A DNA stretch of 64,000 nt from a virus: the IMG/VR virus record IMGVR_UViG_3300011008_000186; one strand, given 5' to 3'. Position 1 is the stretch's first letter. Every line of letters starts with the position of its first letter. The notes beneath the pieces are model-generated. The model made no database searches and was not told the origin of the DNA. It saw nothing but the letters and a program-made list of their open reading frames with translations. Position numbers and translations under genes: made by a program. Positions 1 through 64,000 of this stretch are shown here, piece after piece.

Positions 1-105
1 GAATATAATCCCCCGGAGATTTTTCAAAGACCGCGCCGATCGCCTAGGGGGTGGGTTTTCGCGAGGGCCTCCCCCGGTGCCACCATATGAGTGGTTCCGA
101 GGAAA
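1..105 (-). ncRNA. GC-rich non-coding island, candidate structured RNA; continues past the left window edge
   Basis: No ORF. GC-rich in an AT-rich genome (CCCCCGG twice, GGGGG/CCCCC complementary runs). Read on the minus strand it shares ordered blocks with 32866..33030: CACCCCC, GGCGC, CTTTGAAA, ATTATATTC. Confidence 0.3.
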
Positions 106-299
106 GCAAACTCTTTTTTTGTTTTTTTTTCACTAAAAATTACTATTTTTTCTATTTTTATTTTGTTTTTTTTTCATTTTTTAACTTTTCGAAGTCAATT
201 AATCTATTTTCAATTAAAAACTAGTTTGGAAATGTATGAATCTAGTCCTTAGTTATTCTATCTTCATTTGTTTTTTTCTTTTAAAAGTAATTGTTCGAC

Positions 300-867: not shown

Positions 868-3711
868 TTACGACTCTTTCAAATATTTTCTGATGGTAGA
901 TTCAGAACGTCCCATAACCTCAGCTATTTCTGATACGGTGTAGCCAGATGCATTGAAGCTGCGGATTCTGTTTACTTCTGAATTACTAAGCGTTAATGTT
1001 TGACGAGGAGTTGCAAGCTGCCTGATTAAAGTCGAGTCAGTGTATTTTAGAATTTGCTGGAGCTTATTCTCACTTATAGCCCCATTCCGAATGGCTTCCC
1101 ACTCCTTGTCGGTTATGTCTATAGACGTACGATGCGCACCAACTTTAGATCGGGCCTTATTTAGTTCCACGGTCCTCAATTTAGATTCCTCCTTAGATGA
1201 TAGTTCCAGGGAGGCGGTCTTTTCTTTTACAGCGGAGGTGGCCATTCTTTGTGCCACCCTCTCTTTGGGGGCATTAGCCTGGGCATCCGCCAGCTTATTC
1301 ATAAGGGAGGTAACTTCATTCGAATATTGGGCCTTAGCCTCTTTATTCACCTTCAAATTGCCCGTATTTATCATTTCCAAACGGGCCTTATTCGCTAAGT
1401 CTTTCATAGCATTAGCATAGTCGGCGTATGCTTTTTCTTTTCTTGTACCGGACGATAATGTGTGTGCGTCATTGGTATCTTCCATACGAGTGGTTGTTGA
1501 AAAAGCAGGGCGAGTTATTGTTTTCTCATCCGTCACCTTTACCGTTTCGCCACTTGAATTCTTATAATAAACACCATCTTTTCTAGTTGAACCGGGGATT
1601 TCTTCTTTTGTTACCGGGTCTATTACATTTGTATATTCGCGCCCCGATTGTTTGTAATAAATCTCTCCAGTTTCCTTATTAATCTGTGGCGAACCCTGGC
1701 GTTCTGGAACTCGCACTTCACTTTTGGCTCCTGATATCAATGTAGATGCGCCAGTACTATAATGACCGGTATAAGGATCTATGTGGCCTTGATAAATATC
1801 TTTTAATTCCTTGATATTATTATCTTTTTCCGATTGAACGTAATCTAGTTTATGCTTTTCTGCATCTATAACAACCATTGAATGTCGAATCGCGGCAGCT
1901 AACTCATCTTCGCTCGCGCCTTTGAGAGTCATATCCGTGATCAAATTTGAAACCATACCCATTTGTTTCTGAGTATTATCTTTTGTCATTATCTTGACTT
2001 TTTTGCCGTCTTCGTTCGTATAGATTGTTTTTCCATTTTTATCAGTAGTTTCAATAGTACTATAAGCAGACTTGGGATCAAATCCAACAAGCCCCCTTAG
2101 AGTATTCTTTGATGATATTCGAACTTTGTCGTTTACTGGTATAACCAGGACCGTGTCACCATCGAAATCTGCTCCAGATAACCGATCAGCAACGTGCTTA
2201 TTTATTCCAACCGCATCCGTTGCTGTACCAATTACTGATTTTCCCTCTTTCTGGTTATTATTAACTGTAAGAATTGGGATCTCGGATATTGATCCATGAG
2301 GATATCTCACAAGTGCTACTTTTTCACCGTTATGGTAATTAGGGGCTGCTATTTCATCGTCTTTCAAACTAGTAACTGGTAATATAACTTGCCAATTCTG
2401 TCTAGGAAGAGCTGCGGCTCTCAAATGCACTGCTGCACTATCGCACTCACTGGCGAATGTCTGCAACATATTCTTTTTTACTGTAACATTTGTCAAATTA
2501 CAAATTTTATCAAACTCATCAGCGCTCTCGGCATATGACAAATTCAGCTGTCTTTTTATCAAACTTTCGGGCTGCTTTGATAAAAACTGTGCGGACAATG
2601 TATCTCTGTAATTATCCCAGTCACCTTCTTCTTTAACTTTATTAATAACGCGAAGATGTTTTTCACCATTCGAGTCAGTCCAATATGACTGACCGCCAGG
2701 ATCTTTTATTAAAGCGCCGAATGGGTTATCATTATCAATAGAACCATCAGCATTCGTCTTCATCGGCTTTAATACTTTAGTCATTGGTGTGCCAACATGT
2801 TTGTTGGTATTAAACAAAACGTCAACGCCATCAGGAAGATCGTCAGAATATACGGCCATTCCTTTCAGATAATGAGTTCCATCGACAGCAATTCGAACCT
2901 GAGCATAATTAGAATTTCCAAGCGAAATATCATCCACGCCTCGACGAAGTTCTATTACTCCATCCTTTTGATCGCCACCTTCTTCAGAATATCTTATTTT
3001 TAACCTTGAAGAATCAAGACTCTTTGGTGGCTGGAACGTTCTATACGTCGCCCCACCGTCATCTGAATGATAATCTGTAACCGACTTAATGTCACCAATA
3101 TGCTGATAAACATATCCTTCAGTATATGTCGGATCGGGCGGAGTAATTACTGTCGTTATAGTCTGCTGCCCTTTGTTTGTCAGCTGCCCGACGCCAATTG
3201 GATAGACATTGTACCCTTCGATGTTTAATATCAATAGTGCTTCTTTCATTGTATCGGAAGAAACACCGAGTTCGGCTTCCACACCCTTACCAACATCCAG
3301 CATGCCTTTTTCTTTAATTTGGGCAGCAAGGAGCTCTGCCGTTTTTTCACCTCTATTTGCATTGTATTCTCGCAATGGATTAAGAAGAGATCTAACCGTA
3401 GATTCATTAACACCCAATTCTCGTCCGATTTCGGTTGCTCCCATTCCTTCGGCCTGCATCTTTTTAGCTAAAGCCACATCTTCTCTACGAATAGCATTCT
3501 TTGCAAGACGCTTCATTGTAGCGAGCTGGGATACTGTCATCTTCTGCTCTTCTGCAAATTCTTTTTCGGTTTTTCCCTCAAGGATCGCCTGTTTGTACGC
3601 ATTCATAAATCCCTTCGGATCATGTTGAAAAGGATTTTCTCCACTTCCATAAGGATATCTTCCGGATCTGTACTTCATGCCATAGTGCATAATTACTCGT
3701 CTGTCGCCCAT
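868..3711 (-). CDS. putative single-subunit two-barrel RNA polymerase (YonO / RdRP-like) with terminal HTH domains
   Basis: 947 aa. The central segment KVALVRYPHGSISEIPILTV...VADRLSGADFDGDTVLVIPV matches the R-x-P ... ADFDGD metal-binding loop of double-psi beta-barrel RNAPs (beta-prime NADFDGD; QDE-1-type LSGGDYDGD). HTH-like segments lie at both ends (GATEIGRELGVNESTVRSLL and GYTVSEIAEVMGRSESTIRKYL). Motif-level call only. Confidence 0.55.
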   Translation of the reverse strand: MGDRRVIMHYGMKYRSGRYPYGSGENPFQHDPKGFMNAYKQAILEGKTEKEFAEEQKMTVSQLATMKRLAKNAIRREDVALAKKMQAEGMGATEIGRELGVNESTVRSLLNPLREYNANRGEKTAELLAAQIKEKGMLDVGKGVEAELGVSSDTMKEALLILNIEGYNVYPIGVGQLTNKGQQTITTVITPPDPTYTEGYVYQHIGDIKSVTDYHSDDGGATYRTFQPPKSLDSSRLKIRYSEEGGDQKDGVIELRRGVDDISLGNSNYAQVRIAVDGTHYLKGMAVYSDDLPDGVDVLFNTNKHVGTPMTKVLKPMKTNADGSIDNDNPFGALIKDPGGQSYWTDSNGEKHLRVINKVKEEGDWDNYRDTLSAQFLSKQPESLIKRQLNLSYAESADEFDKICNLTNVTVKKNMLQTFASECDSAAVHLRAAALPRQNWQVILPVTSLKDDEIAAPNYHNGEKVALVRYPHGSISEIPILTVNNNQKEGKSVIGTATDAVGINKHVADRLSGADFDGDTVLVIPVNDKVRISSKNTLRGLVGFDPKSAYSTIETTDKNGKTIYTNEDGKKVKIMTKDNTQKQMGMVSNLITDMTLKGASEDELAAAIRHSMVVIDAEKHKLDYVQSEKDNNIKELKDIYQGHIDPYTGHYSTGASTLISGAKSEVRVPERQGSPQINKETGEIYYKQSGREYTNVIDPVTKEEIPGSTRKDGVYYKNSSGETVKVTDEKTITRPAFSTTTRMEDTNDAHTLSSGTRKEKAYADYANAMKDLANKARLEMINTGNLKVNKEAKAQYSNEVTSLMNKLADAQANAPKERVAQRMATSAVKEKTASLELSSKEESKLRTVELNKARSKVGAHRTSIDITDKEWEAIRNGAISENKLQQILKYTDSTLIRQLATPRQTLTLSNSEVNRIRSFNASGYTVSEIAEVMGRSESTIRKYLKES

Positions 3712-4542: not shown

Positions 4543-4749
4543 GACGATGCTCCTTAAAAATTTTTACAAAAAAAAAGAGAATAGGTTACACGAATTCTCA
4601 AATATCAATATTCGTGGCATTTATACCCTCTCCTCTCCATAAAAGGATAACTTTTTTTCGCGAATCAAACGTAATCTCAAATTCAAACAAAAAAAAAGAC
4701 AGGATCACAAAATTTGACGAAAACGCCTTAATAAAAACTCGCAAAAATT

Positions 4750-7704: not shown

Positions 7705-7731
7705 TTTTATTGGATCTCCTTTCTTTTAATT

Positions 7732-7855
7732 AACCTCGGGTAAGGATTTGCACCTTACATGATGCGATGTTTTGCTCAGTTTGACTGGAATCATGTATGC
7801 ATCCATGTCGCATCTACCAGAATCCAATGCGTCTACCTATTCCGCCACCGAGGTT
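7732..7855 (-). ncRNA. tRNA-Leu-like element without a recognisable anticodon arm (copy 1)
   Basis: Minus strand reads AACCTCGG-TG-GCGGAATAGGTAGACGC ... GTAAGG-TGCAAAT-CCTTAC-CCGAGGTT. It has an 8-bp acceptor-like stem, a classic tRNA-Leu D-arm and a 6-bp T-like stem with the non-canonical loop TGCAAAT. The 70-nt central part contains the stem GATGCGA/TCGCATC. Paralogue at 38889..38975. Confidence 0.45.
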
Positions 7856-7860
7856 TGTAA

Positions 7861-11332: not shown

Positions 11333-11381
11333 AAAAAGACCGGCTCCCAAACGAGAACCGGCCCGCAATAAATATAATATT
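11333..11381 (-). terminator. intrinsic terminator, copy A of a perfect 49-bp direct repeat
   Basis: Minus strand: GCCGGTTCTCG TTT GGGAGCCGGTC followed by TTTTT. Identical to 12137..12185. Confidence 0.7.
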
Positions 11382-12136: not shown

Positions 12137-12185
12137 AAAAAGACCGGCTCCCAAACGAGAACCGGCCCGCAATAAATATAATATT
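12137..12185 (-). terminator. intrinsic terminator, copy B of the perfect 49-bp direct repeat
   Basis: Identical to 11333..11381. It abuts the stop codon of the SSB-like gene. Confidence 0.7.
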
Positions 12186-12717: not shown

Positions 12718-12741
12718 TTTATAAACTCCTTAAAAATATAA

Positions 12742-15700
12742 TTATTTGTTGATAAATTCATCTACATCACCATGGACACTTATTGCTTTTCTAGCTTCAA
12801 CTACTAAATAATCATAATAATCTCTTGCTATTGGTGTGTTTAGATTGTTTGCTACATCTGCTTCGAGCCATCTATACGTTTTCTTTATTTTTACAATCTT
12901 TCCGTTATGTTCCTCTTCAAGTTCAATGCTGGATCCGGCCACGGAATAATATTTGCCATCTTTACAACGATACAATAATCCGCCACCGCATCCATCTTTT
13001 ACTGGACAGAAACTACTAACGCGTCCTACAAACTGATAGTTATGACCTTTAGCAATTTGATTTGACAATTGATCGAGATCTTCTCTCAAAATATCATTGT
13101 CGTTTTTGTTAAGTTCTTTTAGTTTTTTGTCATACTCTTTTTCAAGCTCACTCACGTCGGGAAGGAACTCGTTCATGTCCAAATATAATGCTGAATCCCC
13201 AGTAACAGATTTAGTTTCGCACATATCGGAAAACTCGATCGGCTCTTTTGAGAACAATGTTTTAAATACATATGGAACTTGGAATTGAGTTCCGGTTGCA
13301 TCCCATTTACCGTCGTGATAGCAAATGTAAACAGCATTATTCGCAAGACACATTTTGTCATATGTAGCTTCGTGCTCGAAGTTGTATCCATAAAGCTTTC
13401 CATAATCCATAACAAATTGAATTATTTCTGGCGTGGCATTAGGAATCTTAATCGAGTCGGTTTTGATATGGGCTACTGTAAAGCCTCTTTTCTGAACCTG
13501 ATGCTTGAGATTTATCATAAACAAAGCACCACGCTTGGCTACGATGTTGTCTTTGTTTCTTGGATCTTTGAATGGATTCTCGAAACTTGCTGAAGTTAAA
13601 CCATAGACCGAATTAATTGCAATTTTCAAAGCCTGGGCCAACTGTTTTGCTTGATCAGGATCATCCAAATACTTGGCTAATTTACCATTAAATAGCTTCT
13701 TAGCCGATTCAAAGTCCTTATGCTTAATGAAAATTCTGGCATTAACTATATCCTGAAAATTCTGAGTATATTTTCCGAATAACCATTCTGCTATAGCTGA
13801 TGACGGATGCATAGATGCAATATCAAGAAGAGCTACATTATAGTAAATTCCAGGTTCTGCGTATACATATCCGCCTTCGCCAACTTCTTCGCCTCGATAG
13901 AGCGATTTAAATGCCCCTTTTTCGGTCTTTCCATTCTTAGACAATATCTTTACGTATTTGTACTCATAACCCGGAAATACGGGCTTCTCATCGCTTGTGA
14001 AGCATGTATACTCATCATCAAATAAGCAATGATCGGCACCTTCCGCCATGTTACGATAATTGAAACTTGATTGCGGATGCCTTTCGTTACCAAATATAAT
14101 CTTTTGAGTCAGTTTAAATACTGCTTCGGTTGCTAATACATCATTGCAGCAATAACTAGCAACTTCTTCCCATCTGCTTTCCGGAACCGGTTCGTCCCAA
14201 GGAATACCAAGTTCTTTATGAACAATAGGCTGATACGGTTTTGAAATATAAAGTTGAACCGTATCTATAGGGATGTCGAGTTTTTTCGAAATTTCTTCAT
14301 CACTTAGTCCGTCTTTATGGAACTTGTTAGCTTTGTCGTAATCGGACTGACATTTATTATTAAGCTCTATCTCCCATTTCTTAAGACTTTGCTTTTTACT
14401 ACAATAATCATAAATATCAGTGTACGACATGTCGTAAGCCGGACCATAAAATACAGACTTACTTTTATTTAGAATAATAGACTGTGATAATTCAAATAAT
14501 CCCTCAAGGGTTAAATGCTGAATACGACCATAAACAATATGATTATCGTATTTTCGACAGTTAAACCCTACCAGTTTCTTTTTAGAAAATTCCAAACATT
14601 CATCTGGTGTAGGATTGATCATAGTGATCACTGGCATATCAACGTCGTAGTATTTCCAACAGATTACAAAAAGATTTTTAAATGTTTCGACATCATAAAT
14701 TGTTACTGGCTCATTATCGTTTTCAACTTCGGCCACAGACCAATCAGTAATTTCTGAAACCTCTTCTTCGTGATCTTTGGACTTAAATTTAATAGTGTCA
14801 AGTAAGCCGAGACAATAATCTGCATGATGAGTGCTATTTGCTGCAAAATCCCAAATAAGTTCGTACATATCTGATAAATCGTATGAAATATCAGAATTGT
14901 AAGCATCTTGAAAAAGCTTTACGATGAAATCCATACTTGGTTTGGTACCAGGTTGGTATTCTTTGTGCATGGAATTAATTATCAATCGTCGTAAATGCTT
15001 TTCGTTTTGTATTTCCTTGCTGTTTACCACCTGGACCTCCTTTTTCAATGGTAAACCACTACTAATTGTTGCTATCGGCTGATCGTTGCATCGTGTGAGT
15101 TTTCGACGTAAAGCCCTCTTGCCTTCGCATATTTTTATCTCTATGTTTTCCGCATATATGTTATCCAGCTTCGACACGTCTCCTGTATAAATATAATGAA
15201 GATGTATTCCGGCATCGGACTTACTTGTTTCTGCATATGTTTTAGGCCAAGTGGATGCTGCTTTCTTATTTAGTTCAAAACTTTTATTTCCGTTTTCGTC
15301 TTTAAGATCAAAGTCAACAAAAATATGTGCCATCCCATTGATTTCCGGAGCTAAAATATAATGAAGCTTCGTAGTATCAAGATCTGATAATTTTGTTTTT
15401 ACTTTATCCCATGCCGTTCTTGGGCGATCACGTCCATCAGCTAATACCGTGGCATATTGTGCAGTACAGTCCTTTAAAATATCATCAAGAATGCTGTCTC
15501 TTAGTTTCAGATCAAGCCAATCGTTTGGGGAAGTTTTTTCTGAATTTTCACCCTGGGAATTTTCTTCAAAACTTTTATAGTTTTTCTTGAAAAGTCCGGT
15601 TTTAAATCCAGAATAGACTGATCTGGTACGAGCATTGTCGTTTGAACGAATATCAAATTTTTCGAAATAATTTTTCAATTCTTCTTTGAACGCTCTTTTA

Positions 15701-16896
15701 GAAAATGGATAAGGTACCTTAGCATCTTCGCAGTATTCTTTGTACATTTCGTAAGCTGTAGCCAATGAGATCGAATCTTCTTTTTTAAAAACGAAATACG
15801 AGTCAAGAACAAAATCGTAGAAATCATTTGATGCATCGATCATAGTTTCGGGAATATAATCATCATATGCACTGGGATCGGATTCATAAACCTGTTTACA
15901 ATGATATGCTATCCCTCCTAATTCGAAGTCAATGTCTTTTATCAAACGCCTGTATTCTTTTGGTGGGATTAATTTTCCGGTTGGACTTACGTCAATCAAA
16001 CGTCTGATGATGCCGGACTTTGCATCGGTAATCCTGACTGGTTTATTAGTTCCCATAAATAAAAAAGAATTAAATCGCATGTTATATAAACCTTTGAACT
16101 TTTCATTCACTGGCATTTCCTCATGTGATGTTAAAGAATTTAATTTGGTATTGTCTTCGATTCGTGATAGATCGCCGTCATGCTGTATGGCGACTAGTGG
16201 ATTGTCTTTCAATGACTCCAAAGCAAATGCGTTTCCTGCTTGTCCCAAAGCCTTTGCGTCGAACGTTCCGTAATATCCAGCGAATAGCTTTTGAATGATA
16301 TTAAGAACAGTTGACTTTCCTGTTCCACTTGCGCCATACAGCACTAAAAACTTTTGAATTTTCTTACTGGCACCATTTATTATAGCACCAATCGCCCATT
16401 CAATTTTCTTACGCTCTTTCTCGGAATATAATACGGACATCAGAGTATCGTATGCTGGCGTTTTACATTCTTCCAAAGCATATTCTACTCTCTTTGATGA
16501 GTAGTCGCTTTTCTCCGTTTTATCGTTTAAGAATATAATTTTTTCATCAAGAGGTTTCCAGTTTTCTCTTAAATCTTTCGTGCAGTATGTATGCCACGAG
16601 TTTATTATTCTTGTTGACGATGCCTTTATATGGAGAACTTTAACTCTGGGAACGTCTTCGTATTTGTTTTTTAACTCCTCCCGATACTTTTCGGCGTAAT
16701 TGTCCAGTTCTCTATCGATAATATCAAGCACATCTTGCTCGTCAGTGCTCCAACGATGTTCTTCCTCCAGCCAAATAGCATAGAAGTCTTTTCCTCGAAT
16801 CATTAAATCTTTCGACTTAATTATCTTAAATTCCGGATAGACTTCCACAACTCCTTTCTTCCCGGGACGGGTTAAAATTTGAAGGAAGTCGAACAC
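12742..16896 (-). CDS. fused SF3 (D5-like) helicase - AEP primase - family B DNA polymerase
   Basis: 1384 aa. Motifs: Walker A GASGTGKST; AEP-like HIFVDFD and SDAGIHLHY; PolB ExoI YDVETF, ExoII FNCRKYD, ExoIII YCCNDV; motif A LDIASMHPS; motif B KIAINSVYG; motif C HIKTDS. Confidence 0.85.
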   Translation of the reverse strand: MFDFLQILTRPGKKGVVEVYPEFKIIKSKDLMIRGKDFYAIWLEEEHRWSTDEQDVLDIIDRELDNYAEKYREELKNKYEDVPRVKVLHIKASSTRIINSWHTYCTKDLRENWKPLDEKIIFLNDKTEKSDYSSKRVEYALEECKTPAYDTLMSVLYSEKERKKIEWAIGAIINGASKKIQKFLVLYGASGTGKSTVLNIIQKLFAGYYGTFDAKALGQAGNAFALESLKDNPLVAIQHDGDLSRIEDNTKLNSLTSHEEMPVNEKFKGLYNMRFNSFLFMGTNKPVRITDAKSGIIRRLIDVSPTGKLIPPKEYRRLIKDIDFELGGIAYHCKQVYESDPSAYDDYIPETMIDASNDFYDFVLDSYFVFKKEDSISLATAYEMYKEYCEDAKVPYPFSKRAFKEELKNYFEKFDIRSNDNARTRSVYSGFKTGLFKKNYKSFEENSQGENSEKTSPNDWLDLKLRDSILDDILKDCTAQYATVLADGRDRPRTAWDKVKTKLSDLDTTKLHYILAPEINGMAHIFVDFDLKDENGNKSFELNKKAASTWPKTYAETSKSDAGIHLHYIYTGDVSKLDNIYAENIEIKICEGKRALRRKLTRCNDQPIATISSGLPLKKEVQVVNSKEIQNEKHLRRLIINSMHKEYQPGTKPSMDFIVKLFQDAYNSDISYDLSDMYELIWDFAANSTHHADYCLGLLDTIKFKSKDHEEEVSEITDWSVAEVENDNEPVTIYDVETFKNLFVICWKYYDVDMPVITMINPTPDECLEFSKKKLVGFNCRKYDNHIVYGRIQHLTLEGLFELSQSIILNKSKSVFYGPAYDMSYTDIYDYCSKKQSLKKWEIELNNKCQSDYDKANKFHKDGLSDEEISKKLDIPIDTVQLYISKPYQPIVHKELGIPWDEPVPESRWEEVASYCCNDVLATEAVFKLTQKIIFGNERHPQSSFNYRNMAEGADHCLFDDEYTCFTSDEKPVFPGYEYKYVKILSKNGKTEKGAFKSLYRGEEVGEGGYVYAEPGIYYNVALLDIASMHPSSAIAEWLFGKYTQNFQDIVNARIFIKHKDFESAKKLFNGKLAKYLDDPDQAKQLAQALKIAINSVYGLTSASFENPFKDPRNKDNIVAKRGALFMINLKHQVQKRGFTVAHIKTDSIKIPNATPEIIQFVMDYGKLYGYNFEHEATYDKMCLANNAVYICYHDGKWDATGTQFQVPYVFKTLFSKEPIEFSDMCETKSVTGDSALYLDMNEFLPDVSELEKEYDKKLKELNKNDNDILREDLDQLSNQIAKGHNYQFVGRVSSFCPVKDGCGGGLLYRCKDGKYYSVAGSSIELEEEHNGKIVKIKKTYRWLEADVANNLNTPIARDYYDYLVVEARKAISVHGDVDEFINK

Positions 16897-20315: not shown

Positions 20316-20346
20316 AAATATAATCCTCCTTCCTAATAAAAAAGCT

Positions 20347-20760: not shown

Positions 20761-20813
20761 TTTTAATTCCTCCTAAAATATAATTAATTTAAATTAGTTT
20801 TGAAGATTGATTA

Positions 20814-20844
20814 TCTTCATATAAGCATATTAATTTTTCGCGAA
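20814..20844 (-). promoter_or_regulatory. TTCGCGAA-box promoter-like motif (copy 1 of 10)
   Basis: Minus strand: TTCGCGAAAAATTAATATGCTTATATGAAGA, 54 nt upstream of the ATG at 20760. Confidence 0.5.
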
Positions 20845-22021: not shown

Positions 22022-22053
22022 TTTATTAATCCTCCTATTTTGTGAAAGTTTAT

Positions 22054-22084
22054 TCTTATCATAATAGAGGACTAAAATTTCGCG
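22054..22084 (-). promoter_or_regulatory. TTCGCGAA-box promoter-like motif (copy 2)
   Basis: Minus strand: CGCGAAATTTTAGTCCTCTATTATGATAAGA. Confidence 0.5.
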
Positions 22085-22757: not shown

Positions 22758-23220
22758 TAATAGGCGGAGTCATTTTAGTAGAAAAATCTCCTTCCATTGC
22801 GCATATAAAAGCCATATTACATGCAGCATGTTTATAATGCGGAATGCCTGATTCTGAATCGACTCCTGCTGGATCATCAATATACGCAAGAAGATGACGA
22901 AGCAAAGCATCCACGTATCGTTTCTTTTCTACAGTCTTCCAATTGTCTGGATCACCATATTTTTTATTACCATACATTCTGACCTCAGCAATATCACGAA
23001 TGATCTGTGTTGGAACCAAGCTGATCTGAAGCTTTCCTTCATCCGCTTTCGCTGTCTGATTATCCAGAGACAATGACTTTTTAAAATAGTTTTCATATGA
23101 TACCGGTTCGGTTGCTAATACATCATCAAATAAGCAATGATCGGCACCTTCCGCCATGTTACGATAATTGAAACTTGATTGCGGATGCCTTTCGTTACCA
23201 AATATAATCTTTTGAGTCAC
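22735..23220 (-). CDS. dATP/dGTP pyrophosphohydrolase-like (DUF5664-type) protein with a chimeric 5' end
   Basis: The C-terminal 100 aa (LQISLVPTQIIRDIAEVRMYGNKKYGDPDNWK...LLRHLLAY...ESGIPHYKHAACNMAFI) match that family as I recall it. The first 33 codons are a copy of polymerase codons (TQKIIFGNERHPQSSFNYRNMAEGADHCLFDD). The start codon is uncertain (GTG). Confidence 0.5.
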   Translation of the reverse strand: MTQKIIFGNERHPQSSFNYRNMAEGADHCLFDDVLATEPVSYENYFKKSLSLDNQTAKADEGKLQISLVPTQIIRDIAEVRMYGNKKYGDPDNWKTVEKKRYVDALLRHLLAYIDDPAGVDSESGIPHYKHAACNMAFICAMEGDFSTKMTPPINEDDDHE

Positions 23221-56146: not shown

Positions 56147-59100
56147 TCACATCCTCCCTTCCACAGTAATTGCGCCTATGAGCGCTGATATAGCATTTGA
56201 AACCGTGCTACCATCGTCATAGGTTATTCCGTTAACGTTATAAGTATTTGTAGGATTGCTAGTTATAGTACGTTTAAGATCATTTATTGCAGAAACAAGC
56301 TGACTATCGCCAGTATTTCTTATACCGGATTGAACATTAGAGCTCAATGCATAAGACATTCCACTTCCTATTGCCATTCCGCTGTACATTCGATTAACCT
56401 CGGAAATACCGCTTCGAATATTACTTGAATCAAACACGGGTCGAATAACCGGTTGCATATCCATATCGCTGTCCATCATAGACATTATCTTGTCTACAGA
56501 TTTAGACATGATCGCGATAGACTCTGAACCAAGTTTATCGCCAGCGTTGCGTATAACCTGAATATTGTCGAGCATACCATTAGCGTAGCCGACATCATTA
56601 TACATGCCGAGACGTGAAAATTCTTTCGAAGGTGACTGAGTCAGAGTGGCTCTGGCTGTTGCATCTAAGGCCGTTTTACCAAGTTGATAAGCTGCATTAT
56701 ATACATCTTGATTTTTGGATTTCATGCCTTCGATATAACCATTAACATTATACTTACCGAGCTGAATCCACCGGAACTGAAGATTCTGTAACGCTTTGAC
56801 TCCATCGGACACAAGAGCGAACAGCGCAGTCTCGAAATCTGTTTTTCCGTCTTTAAATGCATTACAAAAATCTTCAATACTTGTTGTTGCAACTTCCCTT
56901 AAAATATCAGGAAAGTTTGTTGCTCCTTTGTACTCTTGCTGAGAAATGTATACTAATGTGTTTGTAATGCTACGAAATTCGGATAATGCGGTTTCGATTT
57001 TATCTTTATCCATATCTTTAATGTCAAGATAAAATATCCGATATGCTGTTCCGAAATCTGCTAAACGATCACCAAGATCTTTAAATTCTTTACCAGGATC
57101 TTTATTTTCTTTAAAAATTGAGTTTTCAGAGGATACAACCGTATTAGCCGAACTTAATGCCTGTTCTACGTTTGTAGTATCAGCGCCAGAAACACTATTG
57201 ACAAACGATTTGAAATTGCTGCCATAGTTCTTTAAATTATTTCCAATGGTTTTGAGAATTGACAGATCATTATCGCAAACGATTGTTTTTACATCGGTTA
57301 CCATTGTGGCGGCAGCCTTCACAGCATCTATACCCGCTTGAAAATCGACACCCGTTACCAATCCATTATAATCAATTAAACCTTGCCCAAGATCTTTTAG
57401 TTTCTTGCCAAATTGGCCAAAGTCCATCGTACTCTTTCCAAATAATTTTGAAAAGAAACTACCTTCTTCGGGAAGATTAATGTTGGCCAAAGCCACAATA
57501 ACATCTGTAGCGTCTTTAGCGGCTTCAGTATCGATGTTACCTTTAGATATGATATTCGCAAAGCCAACTATACCATTCGCCAAATAAGGCATCTGCGCAC
57601 CGAATGTTTCGAAGTCGATAGATCCGCCAAATATCTTTCCAATAAGTCCTTTATCGACTGGTATATCTTCGGCCAGTGCTGCGATAATTCCTGCCGCATC
57701 TGCCGCTGTATCAACAGCATTAGGATCAACTTTACCAGTGACAGAACTTGAAAAGTCAGCGATTCCTTCGCCAAAGCTCTTAAGCTGATTTCCGAATTTG
57801 CCAAGATCCTTTGTTCCACCGAATAACCATCCAATGACGCCAGTACTATCAGGAATGTCCTTCGCCAACGTAGCCATTATCTCGCCAGCTAATGCTGCAA
57901 CCTGTGCTGATGTAGGATCGACTTTGCCCCGAACCGATTCAGAGAATTTAGCAATTCCGTCACCGAAGCTAGCTAATTGATCTCCGAATTCGCCAAGATC
58001 CTTTTTACCACCAAATAGCCATCCTAAAACTCCAGAACTGTCAGGAATGTCTTTTGCTAATGCGGCCATCATCTCGCCAGCCTCGACAGCAATATTTACT
58101 GCATTAGGATCGACTTTTCCTGATACTTTATCTGAAAACTTAGCTATTCCGGCACCAAAGTCAACTATTTGTCTGCTAAATTCAGAGAAATCTTTGGACC
58201 CTCCGAACAGCCAATCAAGAACACCAGAGCCTTCTGGAATGTCTTTTGCTAATGCTATCAATATTTCACCAGCTATAGCAGCAACAAGAACTGAAGCTAA
58301 ATTAACTCTGCCTTTAACGATCTGCGAGAAATCAGCAATACCATTACCAAACGCAATTAATTTACTAGCCCATAAGTCCATTGCGGTTTTGCCAAATATC
58401 GAATCAATAAAGTTCGAACCAGTAGGCATGTCTTGAGATAATATTCTCGCCACTCCTGCGGCACAGGCCATTAGCAATAGAGCCGTGGCATTCAAACCAC
58501 CGTCACGCATTATATGATAAGCTTCAGTTATGGCCGTAATATACGCCTTTACTTTTTCTCCAAAGACGCCAATATCTGAAGTACCTATTAATTGTTCAAA
58601 GAATCCGCCAGTCAAAGGTATTGTCTGAGCCAGATCACTCATTGCGTGTCCAACATCGGCAGCCATTTTGAACATTGATACATCATCGTCGGATAGACCA
58701 AATGCTCTAAGCCCATTGACACTCATGTTGATAGCTCTAATATATGTTTTTACTTTCTCTCCGAAGTCACCTAAATCTTTTTCGCCAACGAGTTCCTGAA
58801 CAATACCACCAGTTCGAGGAATCGTCTCTGCTAAGTCGGACATAGCCTTGCCCATTGTCGCAGCACGATCGAACAATTCGACGTCCGTATCGGCAATATT
58901 CATGAATCTAAGACCCATGACAGAAAGATTGATCGCTCGTATATATGCTTGTACTTTATTACCAAAGTCGCCTATATCCTGCTCACCAATAATCTTCTGC
59001 AGCCATCCACCCGATCGAGGAATTGATTTGGCTAATTCGGCCATTGCGGTACCCATAGCAGCTGCTCGATTGAACAATTCAACATCGGAATCTTGAAGAC

Positions 59101-62100
59101 CAATAATTCTAATATAATTAGTACAGAGGCCGAGCGCAGCAATAAAGGCCATCATCTTCTTGCCGAAATCATCCATATCCTTTTCGCCGATGATATCCTG
59201 AAGAATACCGCCGGTTCGAGGAATGGCATTAGCAAAAGTGGCCATAGTTACAGCTGCATCCGCTGCCAATTGAGTTTTATTTAAATCATTCTCAGAGAGT
59301 ACGCTTACAGCTGTTGTAAATCCAACAATTGCTGCTGCAAACGAAACCAAGTCGTTCGCAAGATCAGTAAATGAACGTCCTCCACCAAACGTAAGTAATG
59401 GATTATGAGCAAACGCGTCAATTAATTCTGCTACAGATAATGCAAGAAGAACTGCCACAAGGCATTCAACGCCCTTTATAGTACTATCATCGATGTTCTT
59501 TGCACCATTGATAAATGGCTGGAATGCATCCATGAACGCACTAAGAGCTGCGCCAATAGCAGGTAATGCTTCCATAGCAAATCCAGCAACCAAACCGCCA
59601 AAGAATTTGCCGATAGCTGTGGCCAAGGCACCGAGCAGATCACCTAACTGATTAACAGTATCTATGATCTGTGCCATGTCTGTTGCCCCGCCGGAAATAG
59701 CTTTGATGGCTTCGAATATGCCATACGTCGCGGCAATAATAACTCCAACTCCGGCTATCACTATGCCCATTGCAGCTATGCCATATAGTGCGCCAGTTAT
59801 AGCACCGGCGCCAAAAGTATTACCTATTATAGTTAATACTGCAGTCATAGCAGTAAAAGCTAGAAGCGCCATGGTTAATGATATAGCAGCCTTTAGCAAT
59901 TTACCCGAATCAAACATCGTAAGAACACCGAGAATCGCTGCTATCGATGCCATAGCAAGGATCATTATGCCCAGGCTTACCAATGACTTTTGATATACTT
60001 CTCTATTTTTACCTAAGAAATATAACATTGCGCCAAATGCCACAAAGGCACCTGCCAGAATCCCAAGATTCTTTATGCCAATTCCTTTTATACATTCAGC
60101 TAATGCTATAATTATTTCTTGAACAATCTTAAATACTTTTTCTACAATTTCCGGAGCGCGTTCGGTCAATTTATCCAATACCATAGAGATAATATCCATT
60201 ACGAGATCAATGATAGGACCAAGATTATCTCTAATCATCGTTAGACCGGATATAATTAAATTCAAAAGCGCATCGCCAATCTGAGGTATGTGTGCAACTA
60301 ATGACCCAAGAAATGCTTCTATCAATCCGCTAATCAACGCTGCTGCACTCGACTTAAATGTATCTTTTGCCGCAGCTAACCCTTCAGCAATTGTTACTAA
60401 TATTTTTGGAACTTTCCATGCTGATTCATATAAAATATCTATCGCTTTTGCAAATGCTAATAAACCGACGCCAGTGCCGGCTACCAAGATCCCCAAACCG
60501 GCCGCAGCCATTCCGAATCCTTTTAGTCGCTCTTCAATTGCGCCCATTCCCTTAAGCGCAAATCCGATCCCGACCATTATGCTGGCAAATCCAGCTAAAG
60601 CCGCACCAGCTTTTAAAAGATCGTCCCAACTAACTAATGAAAAAGCTTTAACTATAATAACTAATGAGGACATTACGCCAACAAAAGCCAGCATAGGAAG
60701 CAAACTCTTCTTGGTATCGAGAGTGCCCATTACATGAGAAACTCCAGCCAATATTGACGAGAATGCCAATAAAGTAACAGCAAACTTACCAATTCCTTCC
60801 CAAGATATCTTAGCAATCTTTGTGGCGGCAAATGATACTAATACCATGGCTGCACCAAATGTCATTATAGCAAGTGCCGTCTCTCCAAGATTAGAGCCAT
60901 CCACGAATTTCGAAAAGATTGCAAGCGAAACACCAAATCCAACTAATATTGCACCAAATTTGCCAAGATCAGGCCAACTAATTGTAGCTATTATTTTAGC
61001 TGCTATAGCAAACATATTCATGGTTAAACCGAAAGCCATAACTGTTCCAGCAACTTTTGCTAGATCTTGTTCTTTGTATTTTCCAAGCAAAATAACGATC
61101 ATACCCATCGCAGCTAGCATAGCAAGTATAGCATCCAAACCTCTATACATCGATTCAGCATCTATCTTAGCAAGTATTTTTATTGAGAGTGATAAAATTA
61201 AAATCGATACTGAAAGTGCTTCAAGTGCTTGGCCTATGGCTTTAGTCTTTTTGCCAAAAATATCTTTAACATTATCAGCATATAAGAACATTGCGGCCAT
61301 TGCCGCCATAAGTGCTGCGACAATTATGCCTAGTCCTTCAATACCTTGGATAAATTCTCTGGTGTTTAATTTACCTATTATATAAACAGCTCCGGCTATA
61401 ATAGCGATAGCGGCAGCCACTTTCATTAAAGCCGAGCCGAGCATATTCATCTCGATGCCCGTAGCTATCTTATTTAAAAAATTGTTAACTCCATTTGCAA
61501 GGTTATTTACTATATTCTCCCATTTAAACGTACTGTCTTCGCTTTTTTCTATTTTAATATTGACTTTATCGATAATCGCAAACAGCACGGCCAGACCAGT
61601 AAATATAAAACCGAGAATGGCGATTGCTTCGTTTAATCGATCGCTATCGACCAAAGATAATGCAATAACCGAACCTGCTAAAATAGCTACCGCAACGGCT
61701 ATCTTTTTAAGAATATCCGCTTTTATTGTATTTTGATATTCGGTGAGAACGCCTTGAAGACTCTTAAACGTATTAACAACGGCTTCAGTTATTGTACCGA
61801 GAGGTCCTGCTGCGCCTTTTTTCTTAATATCATTGATCAGATCAATAATCTTTAGTATTAATGCGAATGCGCCGCCTTCGACAAGAACCTGAGTAACGCT
61901 CTTTCCGCCCATATAAGTATTCCAAAAGTCTCTAAGATAATCGCTAATTTGCCCAAATAAATCTTTTATAAATCCCCAAACAACTTTCACTACGCTCCAA
62001 ACTTTATCAACAACTTTTTTAAAGTTTTCCCATGCTTTTGAAAGTTTTTCGAGAATTGTGACCCAATCTATATTCTTAATAGATTCTCCAAGATTATCAA

Positions 62101-64000
62101 AGAATGCTTTGATTTTCTTACCAGTCTCACTTTGTTCGATACTATCGTTTATTTTTTTCAGACTGTTGGAAACTCTTTGACCAAATGTTTCGACTCCGGT
62201 TTCTTTCTTTCCGAAAACTTTTGATATAGCATCTTTAATATTATTAAATGCTGTACCAATATTTGAACCGAAATTACGAACGACCGGCCAAACTTTATCT
62301 ATGATTGATTTGATGTGCTCAAGAACATCTGCGAAAGTTGACCAACCGCCACCTTTCTTTTTCATGGTATCGGTAACTTTGCCAAAGAAATCCCCAAAAT
62401 CTTTAGATTCCTTAGTTAAATCAATAATAATATTTAACCATCGGGTAAATGCGTCTATTCCTTTATTAGCGCCTTCGCTTATCTTTTCTATACGTTCCCT
62501 TACTGGTGCTAGGAAATCATTTATTGCTTTAGCTGCATCTTTGAACCAAGTTACACTATCAAGCCAAGTATTAATTCGTTTTACTAAATTGCCGAAATGT
62601 TTTGTTATATTTAATATAACATCAACAATCCCTTTAAATGCGGGACCTAAAGTATTATCAAATATAGCTTTAAGTATTTCTTTTAAACCTTTTGCTAATT
62701 TCCAAATAACTGATAATGGACCGACAATAGCATAAGTTAAGCTTTTTATGTCATCCGCATGACTCTCGATAAATTCGGAGAACTGTTTCATCCTAGCTTG
62801 GAATCTGGTTGTTATATCAAATAAAAGTAGTGCTTGATCGGATGCCTCGCCAGCACCTTCTCCCATTTGATCATAAGCTTCGTATAGTACTTCCAAATAA
62901 TCAGGAACTGTATTAAACTCTTCCTGATATGCGGCTTGAATTTCGAGAATCTTTCCCGAAAGCCGTTCCATAAAAGACTCAGAAGCTTCGCCGACTTTTT
63001 CGGTGGTAGCTAATATAGGGAAAATGTCTGAAAGCGCATTACTAACAGTATCCAAAAAGCTTTTAATCGCATCGCCAAGATAATAAAATGCACCTATATC
63101 CTGATCGAATAAAAACTTTCTTCCACCAATATCTTTCCACTCAGCTATAGCGTCAGAAACAAACCATATAGGATCTACAAATATCTCATATAAATAATTG
63201 GCTAAATCTGTAAATAGTATTTTTGCTTCATCGTAGTTACCAATGATGGTTTTCCATACAAACATCCACCGAGAACTTGCGGCGTCGTTTACGGAGGCTA
63301 TAGCTTCTTCCCATGTTTTGGCCTCTTGCGCGGCGACAGCTGCTGCTTTGGCAGCCTCAGTCCAGCCCCAATCTTCGCCACTCATCTCTTGCATGGTTTC
63401 GGCAAGCTGCTTAGCCTCGCCAAATGTCATACCAAATACGGTTTCCAAGTTCATGATATCATCCATGTACTTGCCAAATCCGTTAAGCGCCTTCATAATT
63501 ACGTCGTTTGAAAGCCACTGGGAACTAAGTGTAGAAGCAAAATTCTTGGTGCTAACGTCGTCGAACTGTTTTTTTGCTTCGGTTACTGTTCGTAAGTATT
63601 CTACTCCGGTTTCTTCATCGACATATCTTTCAAGCGTGCCCAGTGCTTCGCCCGCTTCAATAAATGCTGAGGTCAAAGCCGTACCAGTCATCTTAGCAGT
63701 ACTGAACCATTTCCAGTTATTGTTTGCCAAGTATCCCTGCGCCATACCGCCAACCAGACCAGATAGAGCATGCTGTGCATTTCCGGCATTTACACCCATA
63801 AGAGCCGCTGCAGCATTGAAACCTTCCAACGCTCTAGTCGAATCAGACAAATCTAAATCATAAGTAGTGAATTTTGCAATAGCATCAACCATACTGCTAT
63901 AATCATATGAGGTTTCATCAGCAAAAGTCATTAACTTAGCAAGATTGTGCTCAACTGTATCAAGATCATAACCGGCATTAACCATCATCTGAACTGATGA
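56147..64000 (-). CDS. tape measure protein (5' end open at window edge)
   Basis: More than 2613 aa, with the reading frame still open at 64000. Long central block of hydrophobic helices. Two tandem repeat families. C-terminal region typical of tape measure proteins. Confidence 0.8.
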   Translation of the reverse strand, partial: SSVQMMVNAGYDLDTVEHNLAKLMTFADETSYDYSSMVDAIAKFTTYDLDLSDSTRALEGFNAAAALMGVNAGNAQHALSGLVGGMAQGYLANNNWKWFSTAKMTGTALTSAFIEAGEALGTLERYVDEETGVEYLRTVTEAKKQFDDVSTKNFASTLSSQWLSNDVIMKALNGFGKYMDDIMNLETVFGMTFGEAKQLAETMQEMSGEDWGWTEAAKAAAVAAQEAKTWEEAIASVNDAASSRWMFVWKTIIGNYDEAKILFTDLANYLYEIFVDPIWFVSDAIAEWKDIGGRKFLFDQDIGAFYYLGDAIKSFLDTVSNALSDIFPILATTEKVGEASESFMERLSGKILEIQAAYQEEFNTVPDYLEVLYEAYDQMGEGAGEASDQALLLFDITTRFQARMKQFSEFIESHADDIKSLTYAIVGPLSVIWKLAKGLKEILKAIFDNTLGPAFKGIVDVILNITKHFGNLVKRINTWLDSVTWFKDAAKAINDFLAPVRERIEKISEGANKGIDAFTRWLNIIIDLTKESKDFGDFFGKVTDTMKKKGGGWSTFADVLEHIKSIIDKVWPVVRNFGSNIGTAFNNIKDAISKVFGKKETGVETFGQRVSNSLKKINDSIEQSETGKKIKAFFDNLGESIKNIDWVTILEKLSKAWENFKKVVDKVWSVVKVVWGFIKDLFGQISDYLRDFWNTYMGGKSVTQVLVEGGAFALILKIIDLINDIKKKGAAGPLGTITEAVVNTFKSLQGVLTEYQNTIKADILKKIAVAVAILAGSVIALSLVDSDRLNEAIAILGFIFTGLAVLFAIIDKVNIKIEKSEDSTFKWENIVNNLANGVNNFLNKIATGIEMNMLGSALMKVAAAIAIIAGAVYIIGKLNTREFIQGIEGLGIIVAALMAAMAAMFLYADNVKDIFGKKTKAIGQALEALSVSILILSLSIKILAKIDAESMYRGLDAILAMLAAMGMIVILLGKYKEQDLAKVAGTVMAFGLTMNMFAIAAKIIATISWPDLGKFGAILVGFGVSLAIFSKFVDGSNLGETALAIMTFGAAMVLVSFAATKIAKISWEGIGKFAVTLLAFSSILAGVSHVMGTLDTKKSLLPMLAFVGVMSSLVIIVKAFSLVSWDDLLKAGAALAGFASIMVGIGFALKGMGAIEERLKGFGMAAAGLGILVAGTGVGLLAFAKAIDILYESAWKVPKILVTIAEGLAAAKDTFKSSAAALISGLIEAFLGSLVAHIPQIGDALLNLIISGLTMIRDNLGPIIDLVMDIISMVLDKLTERAPEIVEKVFKIVQEIIIALAECIKGIGIKNLGILAGAFVAFGAMLYFLGKNREVYQKSLVSLGIMILAMASIAAILGVLTMFDSGKLLKAAISLTMALLAFTAMTAVLTIIGNTFGAGAITGALYGIAAMGIVIAGVGVIIAATYGIFEAIKAISGGATDMAQIIDTVNQLGDLLGALATAIGKFFGGLVAGFAMEALPAIGAALSAFMDAFQPFINGAKNIDDSTIKGVECLVAVLLALSVAELIDAFAHNPLLTFGGGRSFTDLANDLVSFAAAIVGFTTAVSVLSENDLNKTQLAADAAVTMATFANAIPRTGGILQDIIGEKDMDDFGKKMMAFIAALGLCTNYIRIIGLQDSDVELFNRAAAMGTAMAELAKSIPRSGGWLQKIIGEQDIGDFGNKVQAYIRAINLSVMGLRFMNIADTDVELFDRAATMGKAMSDLAETIPRTGGIVQELVGEKDLGDFGEKVKTYIRAINMSVNGLRAFGLSDDDVSMFKMAADVGHAMSDLAQTIPLTGGFFEQLIGTSDIGVFGEKVKAYITAITEAYHIMRDGGLNATALLLMACAAGVARILSQDMPTGSNFIDSIFGKTAMDLWASKLIAFGNGIADFSQIVKGRVNLASVLVAAIAGEILIALAKDIPEGSGVLDWLFGGSKDFSEFSRQIVDFGAGIAKFSDKVSGKVDPNAVNIAVEAGEMMAALAKDIPDSSGVLGWLFGGKKDLGEFGDQLASFGDGIAKFSESVRGKVDPTSAQVAALAGEIMATLAKDIPDSTGVIGWLFGGTKDLGKFGNQLKSFGEGIADFSSSVTGKVDPNAVDTAADAAGIIAALAEDIPVDKGLIGKIFGGSIDFETFGAQMPYLANGIVGFANIISKGNIDTEAAKDATDVIVALANINLPEEGSFFSKLFGKSTMDFGQFGKKLKDLGQGLIDYNGLVTGVDFQAGIDAVKAAATMVTDVKTIVCDNDLSILKTIGNNLKNYGSNFKSFVNSVSGADTTNVEQALSSANTVVSSENSIFKENKDPGKEFKDLGDRLADFGTAYRIFYLDIKDMDKDKIETALSEFRSITNTLVYISQQEYKGATNFPDILREVATTSIEDFCNAFKDGKTDFETALFALVSDGVKALQNLQFRWIQLGKYNVNGYIEGMKSKNQDVYNAAYQLGKTALDATARATLTQSPSKEFSRLGMYNDVGYANGMLDNIQVIRNAGDKLGSESIAIMSKSVDKIMSMMDSDMDMQPVIRPVFDSSNIRSGISEVNRMYSGMAIGSGMSYALSSNVQSGIRNTGDSQLVSAINDLKRTITSNPTNTYNVNGITYDDGSTVSNAISALIGAITVEGRM
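57400..59280. repeat. tandem coding repeats inside the tape measure gene
   Basis: About six units of roughly 180 nt (…DIPxxxGVLxWLFGGxKDLxxFG…) at about 57.4-58.5 kb, and four units of about 200 nt (…IPRTGGxxQxxIGEKDxxDFGxK…) at about 58.55-59.28 kb. Confidence 0.75.

Follow-up and report, generated by a model that had tools for sequence, protein, structure and literature searches.

Gene organization of the window

The DNA analyzed here is a 64,000-nucleotide (nt) stretch of the IMG/VR virus record IMGVR_UViG_3300011008_000186, referred to as the window, and the element in question is a short A/T-rich motif that is repeated many times on one of its strands. The window is most of a temperate siphovirus-like phage of gut Clostridia. 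Crude gene calls placed 95 of 97 genes on the minus strand, and the coding-strand form of the repeated word, which reads AAATATAAT on the plus strand, is therefore ATTATATTT. Along the minus strand from position 64000 downward, the genes follow in the order tape measure and tail, lysis, attP region, small early genes, replication genes, and an RNA polymerase gene (868-3711). The replication region encodes a primase-helicase/PolB fusion, an annealing protein, a helicase, and two nucleases. The lysogeny module is located on the plus strand (34147-35535) and consists of a cI-like helix-turn-helix (HTH) repressor (34147-34485) and a tyrosine integrase (34486-35535), indicating that the phage is temperate.

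The polymerase gene (868-3711, minus strand) encodes a 947-amino-acid (aa) protein that matched PHROG 4291 (phrog_4291, "RNA-dependent RNA polymerase") with E = 0 and is predicted to be a YonO/RdRP-like single-chain two-barrel RNA polymerase. Its catalytic loop reads GADFDGD, and each of its ends bears HTH or sigma-region-4-like domains. Its relatives, at 41 to 54% identity, are the polymerases of a group made up of the actinobacteriophage supercluster, Lactococcus phage 1706, and Faecalibacterium phage FP_oengus, and prophage relatives are present in Lachnospira, Oscillospiraceae, and Ruminococcus genomes. The best identities were 54% in IMG/VR and 53% among GTDB prophages. No match was detectable by tblastn against Bacillus phages, and no relative was found by sequence in the PDB. 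The family has previously been assigned to the RdRP/YonO-like enzymes by HHpred, with its two-barrel identity predicted and its promoter undiscussed (bioRxiv 10.1101/842583). The preliminary description of this DNA, which was made from the letters alone, had overlooked this gene, the end of the motif-rich domain at it, the temperate nature of the phage, and a second, longer repeat.

Abundance and polarity of the motif

An exact search of the window found 48 copies of AAATATAAT on the plus strand and none on the minus strand, in agreement with the earlier count of at least 42 plus-strand copies and no reversed ones. The coordinates given then for 38 examples were exact in 36 cases; the copies placed at 14102 and 26875 start at 14092 and 26876. 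Ten further copies are located at 4009, 8040, 18392, 24474, 35518, 35639, 35825, 36087, 36290, and 41069. Only a few copies would be expected by chance, as had been supposed: an order-3 Markov model gave 2.9 per strand, and dinucleotide shuffles gave a mean of 3.67 and a maximum of 9 for both strands together.

On the coding (minus) strand, the core of the word is T[T/G]ATATT, with 129 sense and 9 antisense occurrences in the window. The form TTATATT accounts for 88 sense and 3 antisense sites and the variant TGATATT for 41 and 6, and the 8-mer ATTATATT occurred 66 times on the coding strand and never on the other. TAATATT and TCATATT were not enriched in the window. A logo built from 87 sites contained information only in A-TTATATT-T, without a -35 element, a TG, or any other flanking signal.

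Within coding sequences (CDS), 28 copies of ATTATATTT were present, compared with 5.2 expected when synonymous codons were shuffled with the proteins kept and 1.7 when codons were permuted. The count thus exceeds what codon usage provides, as the preliminary description had argued. Under the protein-preserving shuffle, TTATATT was the most enriched of all 16,384 heptamers (59 observed, 21 expected; z = 9.0), and its reverse complement, AATATAA, was the third most depleted (1 observed, 9.8 expected). Nonstructural CDS contained 70 sense sites, where 26 were expected from the synonymous shuffle and 20 from the codon permutation; antisense sites were absent, with 6 or 15 expected. In structural CDS, the sense enrichment was about 2-fold (20 sites, 11 expected), and antisense sites numbered 3 where 11.3 or 7.5 were expected. 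The target of selection is the DNA word itself. Intragenic 8-mers do occur in all three reading frames, as reported earlier, but the frames are strongly biased (26, 7, and 6 copies), and the commonest reading is xAT-TAT-ATT, encoding (D/N/H/Y)-Y-I. Both codon choice and amino acid sequence have therefore been bent to fit the word.

The words TATAAAT, TATAATT, and TTATAAT, which resemble canonical -10 elements, were among the most depleted coding-strand words in the CDS of the window, and words containing TATATT were the most enriched.

Distribution of the motif along the window

Counted per 4 kb from coordinate 1, T[TG]ATATT occurred 5, 14, 14, 15, 9, 9, 11, 8, 11, 9, 7, 3, 5, 3, 2, and 4 times. 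These counts define a motif-rich domain that begins with the lysis genes at about 41 kb and extends to 4 kb, where the last gene before that of the polymerase is located, and they bear out the higher density described earlier for 4 to 40 kb than for the tail genes. Of the 48 exact ATTATATTT copies, 44 lie in the motif-rich domain (4009-41077, minus strand), as do about 100 of the 129 T[TG]ATATT sites; the domain comprises the lysis, attP/int/cI, early, and replication genes. The motif-poor domain (41078-64000, minus strand) comprises the tail genes and the tape measure protein gene and contains exact 9-mers only at 47317, 51392, 52635, and 55339; a sense enrichment of about 2-fold and the antisense depletion persist there. 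The polymerase gene contains no ATTATATT, and the motif-rich domain stops at its 5' end. The distribution of the motif tracks gene classes rather than the whole genome: sites are dense between the lysis genes and the gene that precedes the polymerase, and few are found in the tail genes and the polymerase gene. Inside the cI and int genes, which lie on the opposite strand, the polarity of [TG]ATATT was not flipped (10 sites on the minus strand, 3 on the plus strand).

Noncoding DNA makes up 12% of the window and holds about 40% of the 8-mers, an enrichment of about 3-fold, with the qualification that the crude gene calls clipped the DNA polymerase open reading frame (ORF), so that the 26 8-mers counted as intergenic include two (16532 and 16425) that belong to this ORF. 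About 15 of the 66 8-mer copies adjoin a Shine-Dalgarno (SD) sequence (0 to 2 nt) or an ATG (0 to 1 nt). Five copies form the entire SD-ATG spacer as GGAG-ATTATATTT-ATG, and the four examples named in the preliminary description were all verified on the minus strand. These are 20316-20324 (GGAGG-ATTATATTT-ATG, just 3' of a terminator-like hairpin at 20378-20363), 28606-28614 (AAAGGAG-ATTATATTT-ATG), 38860-38868 (a small lysis-region gene), and 39851-39859, which follows a terminator-like hairpin (39927-39898) and precedes an endolysin-like gene with a peptidoglycan-binding domain (38983-39849). About eight copies are found at the SD sequence with a gap of 0 to 2 nt or lie 5 to 7 nt from it. 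The five positions given earlier for ATTATATTT(T)-AGGAGG or -AAGGAG (12734, 20776, 23604, 31402, and 38698) were likewise correct. Among them, the copy at 12734-12742 (ATTATATTTTT-AAGGAG) belongs to the gene for the single-strand annealing protein, that at 20776-20784 lies in a leader downstream of a copy of the long repeat at 20842, and that at 31402-31410 lies 8 nt downstream of the long repeat at 31444, all on the minus strand.

At least six intergenic copies are located between a stop codon and a terminator hairpin or long repeat. The copy at 11370-11378 (minus strand, duplicated at 12174-12182) lies upstream of a strong terminator hairpin (11364-11337), and that at 27173-27181 (minus strand) lies between a stop codon and the hairpin at 27166-27139, which is followed by a long repeat at 27131. 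In the largely noncoding attP region, five exact 9-mers (35518, 35639, 35825, 36087, and 36290; 35518-36298, minus strand) point into, and are antisense to, the integrase and repressor genes. RNA folding of the 40 nt upstream and downstream of the motif and the accessibility of the motif did not differ from controls, indicating that the motif is not part of a hairpin terminator or of a structured RNA. A regular spacing of the motif was marginal at best (coefficient of variation of 0.79 to 0.99, compared with about 0.97 for random placement), and no preference for the 3' ends of genes, from where the next gene could be served, was seen along genes.

A tRNA-Gln(UUG) gene (28637-28710, minus strand) of the early region lies directly upstream of the gene whose SD-ATG spacer is the motif copy at 28606. 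A 99-nt segment is 100% identical at 14013-14111, within the DNA polymerase ORF, and, 9 kb away, at 23121-23219, where two small genes meet, and each of its two copies holds one motif copy. This duplication suggests recent gene conversion or a small mobile segment.

Conservation of the motif in related phages

No close relative of the window was found by megablast in the phage collection, and the conservation of individual sites was therefore measured inside other clades. In three of four clades of genomes that are 90 to 96% identical, motif heptamers were intact in 79 to 96% of cases; control heptamers were intact in 61 to 66%, or in 80% for the pair L050/L051. Purifying selection acts on individual motif sites. 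The preliminary description had proposed looking for conservation in related genomes; in addition to these retained sites, the same polar motif was found in distant relatives.

In FP_oengus, whose GC content is 49%, TGATATT occurred 39 times in the sense and 2 times in the antisense orientation, with 12 copies in the DNA polymerase gene. Five motif copies of this phage are SD-ATG spacers in a variant of its own, TGATATTT(T)-ATG, and several lie just 5' of an SD sequence. Its motif domain also runs from the lysis genes to the polymerase gene, with a density difference of about 20-fold. The gene of the P4/D5-type primase-helicase and PolB-like DNA polymerase fusion in the window (1,384 aa; 12742-16896, minus strand) contains 17 [TG]ATATT sites, of which 4 occupy the same alignment columns as sites in the FP_oengus orthologue (about 47% protein identity). 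Other clades carry TTGATATT, GGTCATATT, ATTATATT, or mixtures of these in genomes with 34 to 51% GC, and the position matching -12 varies across relatives (T, G, or C).

When 54 related loci were pooled, sense and antisense densities per kb were 2.15 and 0.66 in the 10 kb upstream of the polymerase gene, 0.62 and 0.33 inside it, and 0.42 and 0.36 downstream of it. The same domain boundary at the polymerase was seen in the locus L113. The trait, which dozens of related polymerase-encoding phages have in common, was present upstream of the polymerase gene in 13 to 14 of 17 polymerase clusters, which share less than 70% identity with each other. All motif-positive genomes examined encode the polymerase. 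A motif-bearing relative without the polymerase seemed to exist among loci anchored on the helicase gene, but a walk along one contig located the polymerase 13.5 kb downstream of the helicase. A tblastn presence/absence comparison for an accessory reader gene common to motif-positive phages only was uninformative, the loci spanning 10 kb on each side. Unrelated Faecalibacterium prausnitzii phages without this polymerase showed no enrichment (0/4 in FP_Mushu and 1/5 in FP_Taranis, compared with 55/10 in FP_oengus), indicating that the host machinery does not impose the signal on all of its phages.

In the Streptomyces phage Bilo (locus L004, 61% GC), the shorter word ATATT occurred 31 times on the coding strand and once on the other strand between 2720 and 24266.

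The polar motif is genuine, statistically extreme, and conserved. Neither the short motif nor the long repeat was found described in the searchable literature, and the motif appears to be undescribed so far.

A second, longer promoter-like repeat

The window also contains about 10 copies of a longer repeat of about 30 nt, CGCGAAA-TTTTGGTCTCC-TTATATGAAG (CGCGAAA-N11-TTATATGAAG). The reference copy is located at 30978-31015, and the other copies are at 4636-4662, 20805-20842, 22047-22084, 27094-27131, about 27590-27621, about 30576-30605, 31407-31444, 32471-32508, 32812-32849, and 33024-33061, all on the minus strand. The repeat is intergenic and usually follows a terminator and precedes a leader of 10 to 60 nt and an SD sequence, which is the anatomy of a textbook promoter. 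It does not fit sigma-A spacing. In many clades, one conserved copy precedes the polymerase gene by about 950 nt; in the window, it is the copy at 4662.

The repeat is conserved in FP_oengus, where it reads CGCGAAAAAT..CCTTTATGGAAGG and occurs 13 times. Analogous one-strand long repeats were found in phage 1706 (cacatGTTTTACAtataCTATAGTAGAAAGAAGG, 10 copies; locus L003, 24045-42919) and in Bilo (CGCAcGTTTTaC..GGCTTATAATGAGACCCCTAC, about 7 copies; 23246-27135). In these two phages, the repeats follow T-runs and lie directly 5' of early genes, and they share an upstream GTTTTAC block across host phyla.

The phage polymerase as candidate reader

The earlier proposal of a polar functional signal is upheld by the codon shuffles, the reverse-complement depletion, and the conservation; its four candidate functions could be ranked but not settled. 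The depletion of the antisense word indicates that the opposite orientation is harmful, which is the expectation for a promoter or loading site. The best fit is a DNA signal with one orientation, a harmful reverse, and a tie to gene class, which describes a promoter or loading site. Among the earlier candidates, this corresponds to a phage RNA polymerase promoter or initiator element. T[T/G]ATATT(T), with ATTATATTT as its strongest form, may be a minimal one-orientation initiation or loading site for the phage's own transcription machinery, a reading that we favor tentatively and to which we give somewhat less than an even chance. Its reader would most plausibly be the polymerase encoded at 868-3711.

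With the polymerase as reader and initiation as the use, we infer a funnel-like flow of transcription. Initiation or loading of the polymerase would take place at about 100 weak sites that are scattered over the lysis, early, and replication regions and are all oriented like the genes, and the enzyme would read through gene boundaries and hairpin terminators. The summed transcription would run into the polymerase gene and then, where the cos ends are joined, on into the virion genes, which are motif poor. Transcripts starting directly behind the T-run would have a very short leader or none.

A precedent is provided by the class II promoters of T7, which occur densely (about 1 per kb) and partly within genes in the DNA metabolism region and have 23 informative bases. 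The present motif resembles them in the presence of a virus-encoded polymerase, in its many co-oriented copies at about 1 per kb in the DNA metabolism region, some of them in upstream genes, and in the lack of antisense copies. It differs in having only 7 to 9 informative bases, in a polymerase of the two-barrel YonO/RdRP-like type, and in that its start sites are putative. A short, A/T-rich, self-contained core is shared with the initiators of the N4 RNA polymerase II middle promoters and the nonanucleotide promoter of yeast mitochondria. The presence of more than 100 copies and the coexistence of a longer promoter-like repeat set the motif apart from phage polymerase promoters.

YonO of prophage SPbeta is likewise a single-chain polymerase with a DxDGD catalytic loop from a Firmicutes phage. 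The promoter of YonO is explicitly unknown, and the enzyme lacks the flap domain needed for hairpin-dependent pausing and termination (PMC5467207). Unlike the dispersed sites considered here, YonO starts at a single mapped site and transcribes one late operon (PMC5467207). The P23-45 polymerases gp64 and gp96 use dedicated phage-specific motifs of at least 15 nt upstream of 7 to 14 start sites (10.1101/2022.12.01.518664). For phi14:2 gp66, no common promoter motif was found; gp66-dependent transcripts lack a long upstream motif, and the related two-barrel enzymes favor single-stranded templates (bioRxiv 10.1101/2020.03.07.982082). The polymerase of the window differs from these enzymes in being a member of a separate family, in which HTH domains are found at either end.

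Several observations weigh against initiation by the phage polymerase. Copies upstream of the genes to be served are represented by the enrichment in noncoding DNA and by the sites at SD sequences and ATG codons, yet about 60% of all sites are intragenic and spread evenly along the genes, without a preference for 3' ends (Kolmogorov-Smirnov P = 0.31 and 0.92), and the spacing of the sites is near Poisson. The copies that lie just upstream of a terminator hairpin or long repeat would be wasteful unless the polymerase ignores hairpins. The site logo has neither a purine at a fixed downstream distance nor flanking information. The polymerase gene forms the downstream end of the domain that it would transcribe. 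The polymerase occurs without the dense short motif in Lactococcus phage 1706 and Arthrobacter phage Mudcat, and the motif is also absent from two further polymerase-positive loci (L078 and L083). In Bilo, ATATT is enriched in structural CDS (25 observed, 2.6 expected) in all frames; it is found in tail and lysis genes and not in replication genes, a regional preference opposite to that of the gut phages. The long repeat could be the promoter that the phage polymerase truly uses, in which case the short motif would need another reader; alternatively, the long repeat could be read by the host enzyme together with a further factor. No transcript data for this phage group were found in the literature.

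In a broader form of the proposal, which we consider doubtful, the motif would be a polar entry code distributed over many positions and no conventional gene-proximal promoter. A two-barrel polymerase that lacks a sigma factor and favors single-stranded DNA could use the more than 100 minimal sites to enter the coding-direction strand anywhere in the nonvirion half of the genome, or a phage nickase or primase would act at them. ORFs and hairpin terminators would be ignored, and the flow would drive the polymerase gene in a positive feedback and then the virion genes, running antisense through the lysogeny genes. If true, a temperate phage would here organize its temporal program in a new way, and the polymerase family would have its first assigned cis-element.

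The polymerase group, which is found in phages of gut Clostridia, Lactococcus, and Actinobacteria, has no known promoter, and the conserved polar 7- to 9-mer is a testable candidate (ATTACATTT is an example of a point mutant of ATTATATTT). If it is an initiation code, it would show how a sigma-less two-barrel enzyme finds its template and would yield an orthogonal minimal promoter. If the sites are nick or priming marks, they would represent the densest known strand-specific interruption system. Either way, the motif provides a simple sequence signature of lineage and gene orientation in gut metagenomes.

Alternative explanations

The main rival, which we regard as unlikely, is a polar DNA signal other than a promoter: strand-specific nicks as in T5, tf, and phiKMV-like phages, or nick- or primer-initiated DNA synthesis by the primase-helicase-PolB fusion or by the polymerase on single-stranded DNA. 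The near confinement of the word to one strand (48 to 0 for the 9-mer and 66 to 0 for the 8-mer) is a feature of the tf nick consensus as well. Avoidance of antisense copies would be explained as well as by a promoter, since two close opposed sites would lead to a double-strand break. The unflipped polarity inside cI and int, the placement of sites regardless of gene structure, and the preference of related two-barrel polymerases for single-stranded DNA are also consistent with nicking or priming. HUH-type initiators nick at TG/ATATT in phiX174 and at TAATATT/AC in geminiviruses, and the resemblance of the core to these sites is taken as a lead only.

The known nicked phage genomes carry 4 to 20 nicks, compared with more than 100 sites here. 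The tf consensus, TACT/RTGMC, is found at 14 sites, all on the top strand, and even for the model phages no function of such words is known (PMC3517423). The present word shares with the tf, T5, and phiKMV-like consensus sequences a length of 7 to 9 nt and the restriction to one genome strand, but those sites contain G/C, and no class-specific density has been reported for them. T5- or tf-like nick sites, one of the candidates of the preliminary description, keep a small probability. No HUH protein or dedicated nickase was recognized among the scanned proteins of the window, the nucleases seen being a VRR-Nuc-like protein (phrog_93) and a Cas4-like protein. For priming, an even genome-wide spread would be expected, whereas the density differs 4-fold within the window and about 20-fold in FP_oengus, with an edge at a gene border. 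For a genome-wide primase or replication signal, as also suggested earlier, these regional differences of 4- to 20-fold are a poor fit.

An RNA-level signal, with AUUAUAUUU acting in the mRNA, is improbable. Cleavage or decay at the word could time the shut-off of nonstructural messages in the manner of RegB, or the word could serve ribosome-binding sites as an A/U-rich enhancer or operator of translation. Such a role would agree with the copies at SD sequences and in SD-ATG spacers, which FP_oengus repeats with its own variant, with the concentration of the motif in one set of transcripts, and with the several copies in 3' untranslated regions just before terminators. It leaves the depletion of the reverse complement on the coding strand and the polarity kept inside the antisense-oriented int and cI genes unexplained, and most copies lie deep in ORFs and are evenly spread. 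The motif had no link to RNA structure or accessibility, and a generic preference of host ribonucleases or ribosomes is disfavored, since other, unrelated phages of this host lack the motif. For an RNA processing site, the form in which this had been put forward earlier, the antisense depletion and the missing link to RNA structure are likewise unfavorable.

It is also rather improbable that the motif is a -10-like element for the host RNA polymerase, either as a -10-only promoter of the T4 late type with a phage factor or as a sigma- or NusG-dependent pause element in the nontemplate strand. In the TATATT/GATATT core, the A of position -11 and the T of position -7 are retained, and the copy at 33997 is the -10 element of a perfect TTGACA-18-TATATT promoter. 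This promoter (33990-34019, minus strand), a canonical sigma-A-type promoter at the genetic switch, contains the sole motif copy with a -35 element; elsewhere the logo shows neither -35 nor TG. The T4 late promoter, TATAAATA, belongs to the gp55/gp33/gp45 system and is an 8-bp A/T-only -10-like element without a -35 element. The motif resembles it as an 8- to 9-bp A/T-only element without other information that often lies just 5' of a ribosome-binding site or within the preceding gene. Unlike the T4 element, which serves structural genes, it is sparse in the structural genes, and its spacing to SD and ATG is too short for a sigma-type start, since copies touching them would put the start 6 to 8 nt downstream, inside the SD sequence or the ORF. 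No gp55- or gp33-like protein was found. The window does encode a fusion of HTH, sigma region 4, and alpha C-terminal-domain modules (25069-26055), but this protein is missing from the motif-bearing FP_oengus. Further points against a host -10 element are the variable -12-equivalent position in relatives (T, G, or C), the unrelated same-host phages without the motif, and the depletion of canonical TATAAT-like heptamers on the coding strand.

A Chi-like protective or recombination signal, read by a helicase-nuclease (host AddAB/RecBCD or a phage helicase with the Cas4-like nuclease) entering from the right genome end, is very unlikely. Its orientation would be right, the 3' end of the motif strand lying at the polymerase-side end (a cos-like junction near 28-45), and the single orientation would match that of active Chi in lambda; the phage also has a helicase, a PD-(D/E)XK nuclease, and an annealing protein. 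However, the 4 kb nearest that end, occupied by the polymerase gene, are motif poor, and antisense Chi would be harmless, leaving the depletion unexplained. Chi and the FtsK-orienting polar sequences (KOPS) are read by the host, distributed genome-wide, and G-rich, and their opposite orientation is not strongly avoided. Like them, the motif is a short overrepresented oligomer with a strong strand skew that is tolerated in genes in all frames, and the effect of Chi and KOPS depends on density. Unlike them, it follows the phage lineage rather than the host and is confined to one region. Chi is host specific, whereas the core of the motif is conserved over phages from different families of hosts as well as in a Streptomyces phage, and the two other F. 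prausnitzii phages lack the motif.

The absence of any function, with the word as a by-product of composition, codon-pair bias, or strand-specific mutational bias, is effectively refuted by the codon-aware shuffles: the favored intragenic frame xAT-TAT-ATT does consist of the commonest codons, and a maximal-order Markov expectation is trivially met with subwords enriched too, but the counts are 5- to 16-fold above codon-aware nulls, noncoding DNA is enriched as well, sites are conserved above background, the same word recurs at 34 to 51% GC (and ATATT in a 61% GC genome), and the density steps sharply at a gene border.

Other features of the phage

The fusion of HTH (Cro/CI-type), sigma-70 region 4, and RNA polymerase alpha C-terminal-domain-like modules (328 aa; 25069-26055, minus strand) is an unusual mosaic of host polymerase DNA-binding modules, for which no counterpart was found in FP_oengus or the other loci. 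It was rejected as the reader of the motif, FP_oengus having the motif without this protein. The tape measure protein (2,613 aa; 56147-63988, minus strand) has three 192-nt internal repeats at 57721-58296. The tape measure protein of P23-45 carries a polymerase at its N terminus; no such signature was seen in the protein of the window, which had a weak TMP_3 match alone.

Tandem sigma-A-type promoters at 33990-34053 point to the early genes. Beside the lysogeny module, a fragment at 35690-35760 resembles by eye the 3' half of a tRNA; it was not called by ARAGORN and may be the attP core. At the end of the genome, a comparison of window 1-140 with the end of L116 and the start of L086 showed that a second assembly of the same phage stops at the cos-like junction near 28-45. 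The 28 nt past this junction (TTGAAAAATCTCCGGGGGATTATATTC) resemble the left end of Arthrobacter phage Mudcat (AAAAAATCCCCGGGGGAATATTTCG), and one motif copy lies within the conserved end region.

Two related intergenic elements of 120 to 155 nt with tRNA-like ends (GGUGGCGGAAUAGGUAGACGCAU ... AAGGUGCAAAUCCUUA) are located at 7705-7860 and 38860-38982 (minus strand). Neither was called by ARAGORN, and tRNA was the sole match in an Rfam search of known RNA families. The element at 7705-7860 folds into a cloverleaf-like structure with a long insert (z = -1.9) and had no Rfam match at E values up to 1. The ORF at 28750-29265 is associated with 17 tandem copies of a 15-nt unit (28904-29275) that encode a pentapeptide repeat inside it. 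Short early transcription units are closed by a family of six terminator hairpins with nearly the same sequence (GTCCTGAGCAAGACTTTAAACTGCTC and then a T-run, read on the coding strand), at 24601-24644, 26884-26927, 28699-28742, 30346-30389, 31015-31058, and 32505-32548.

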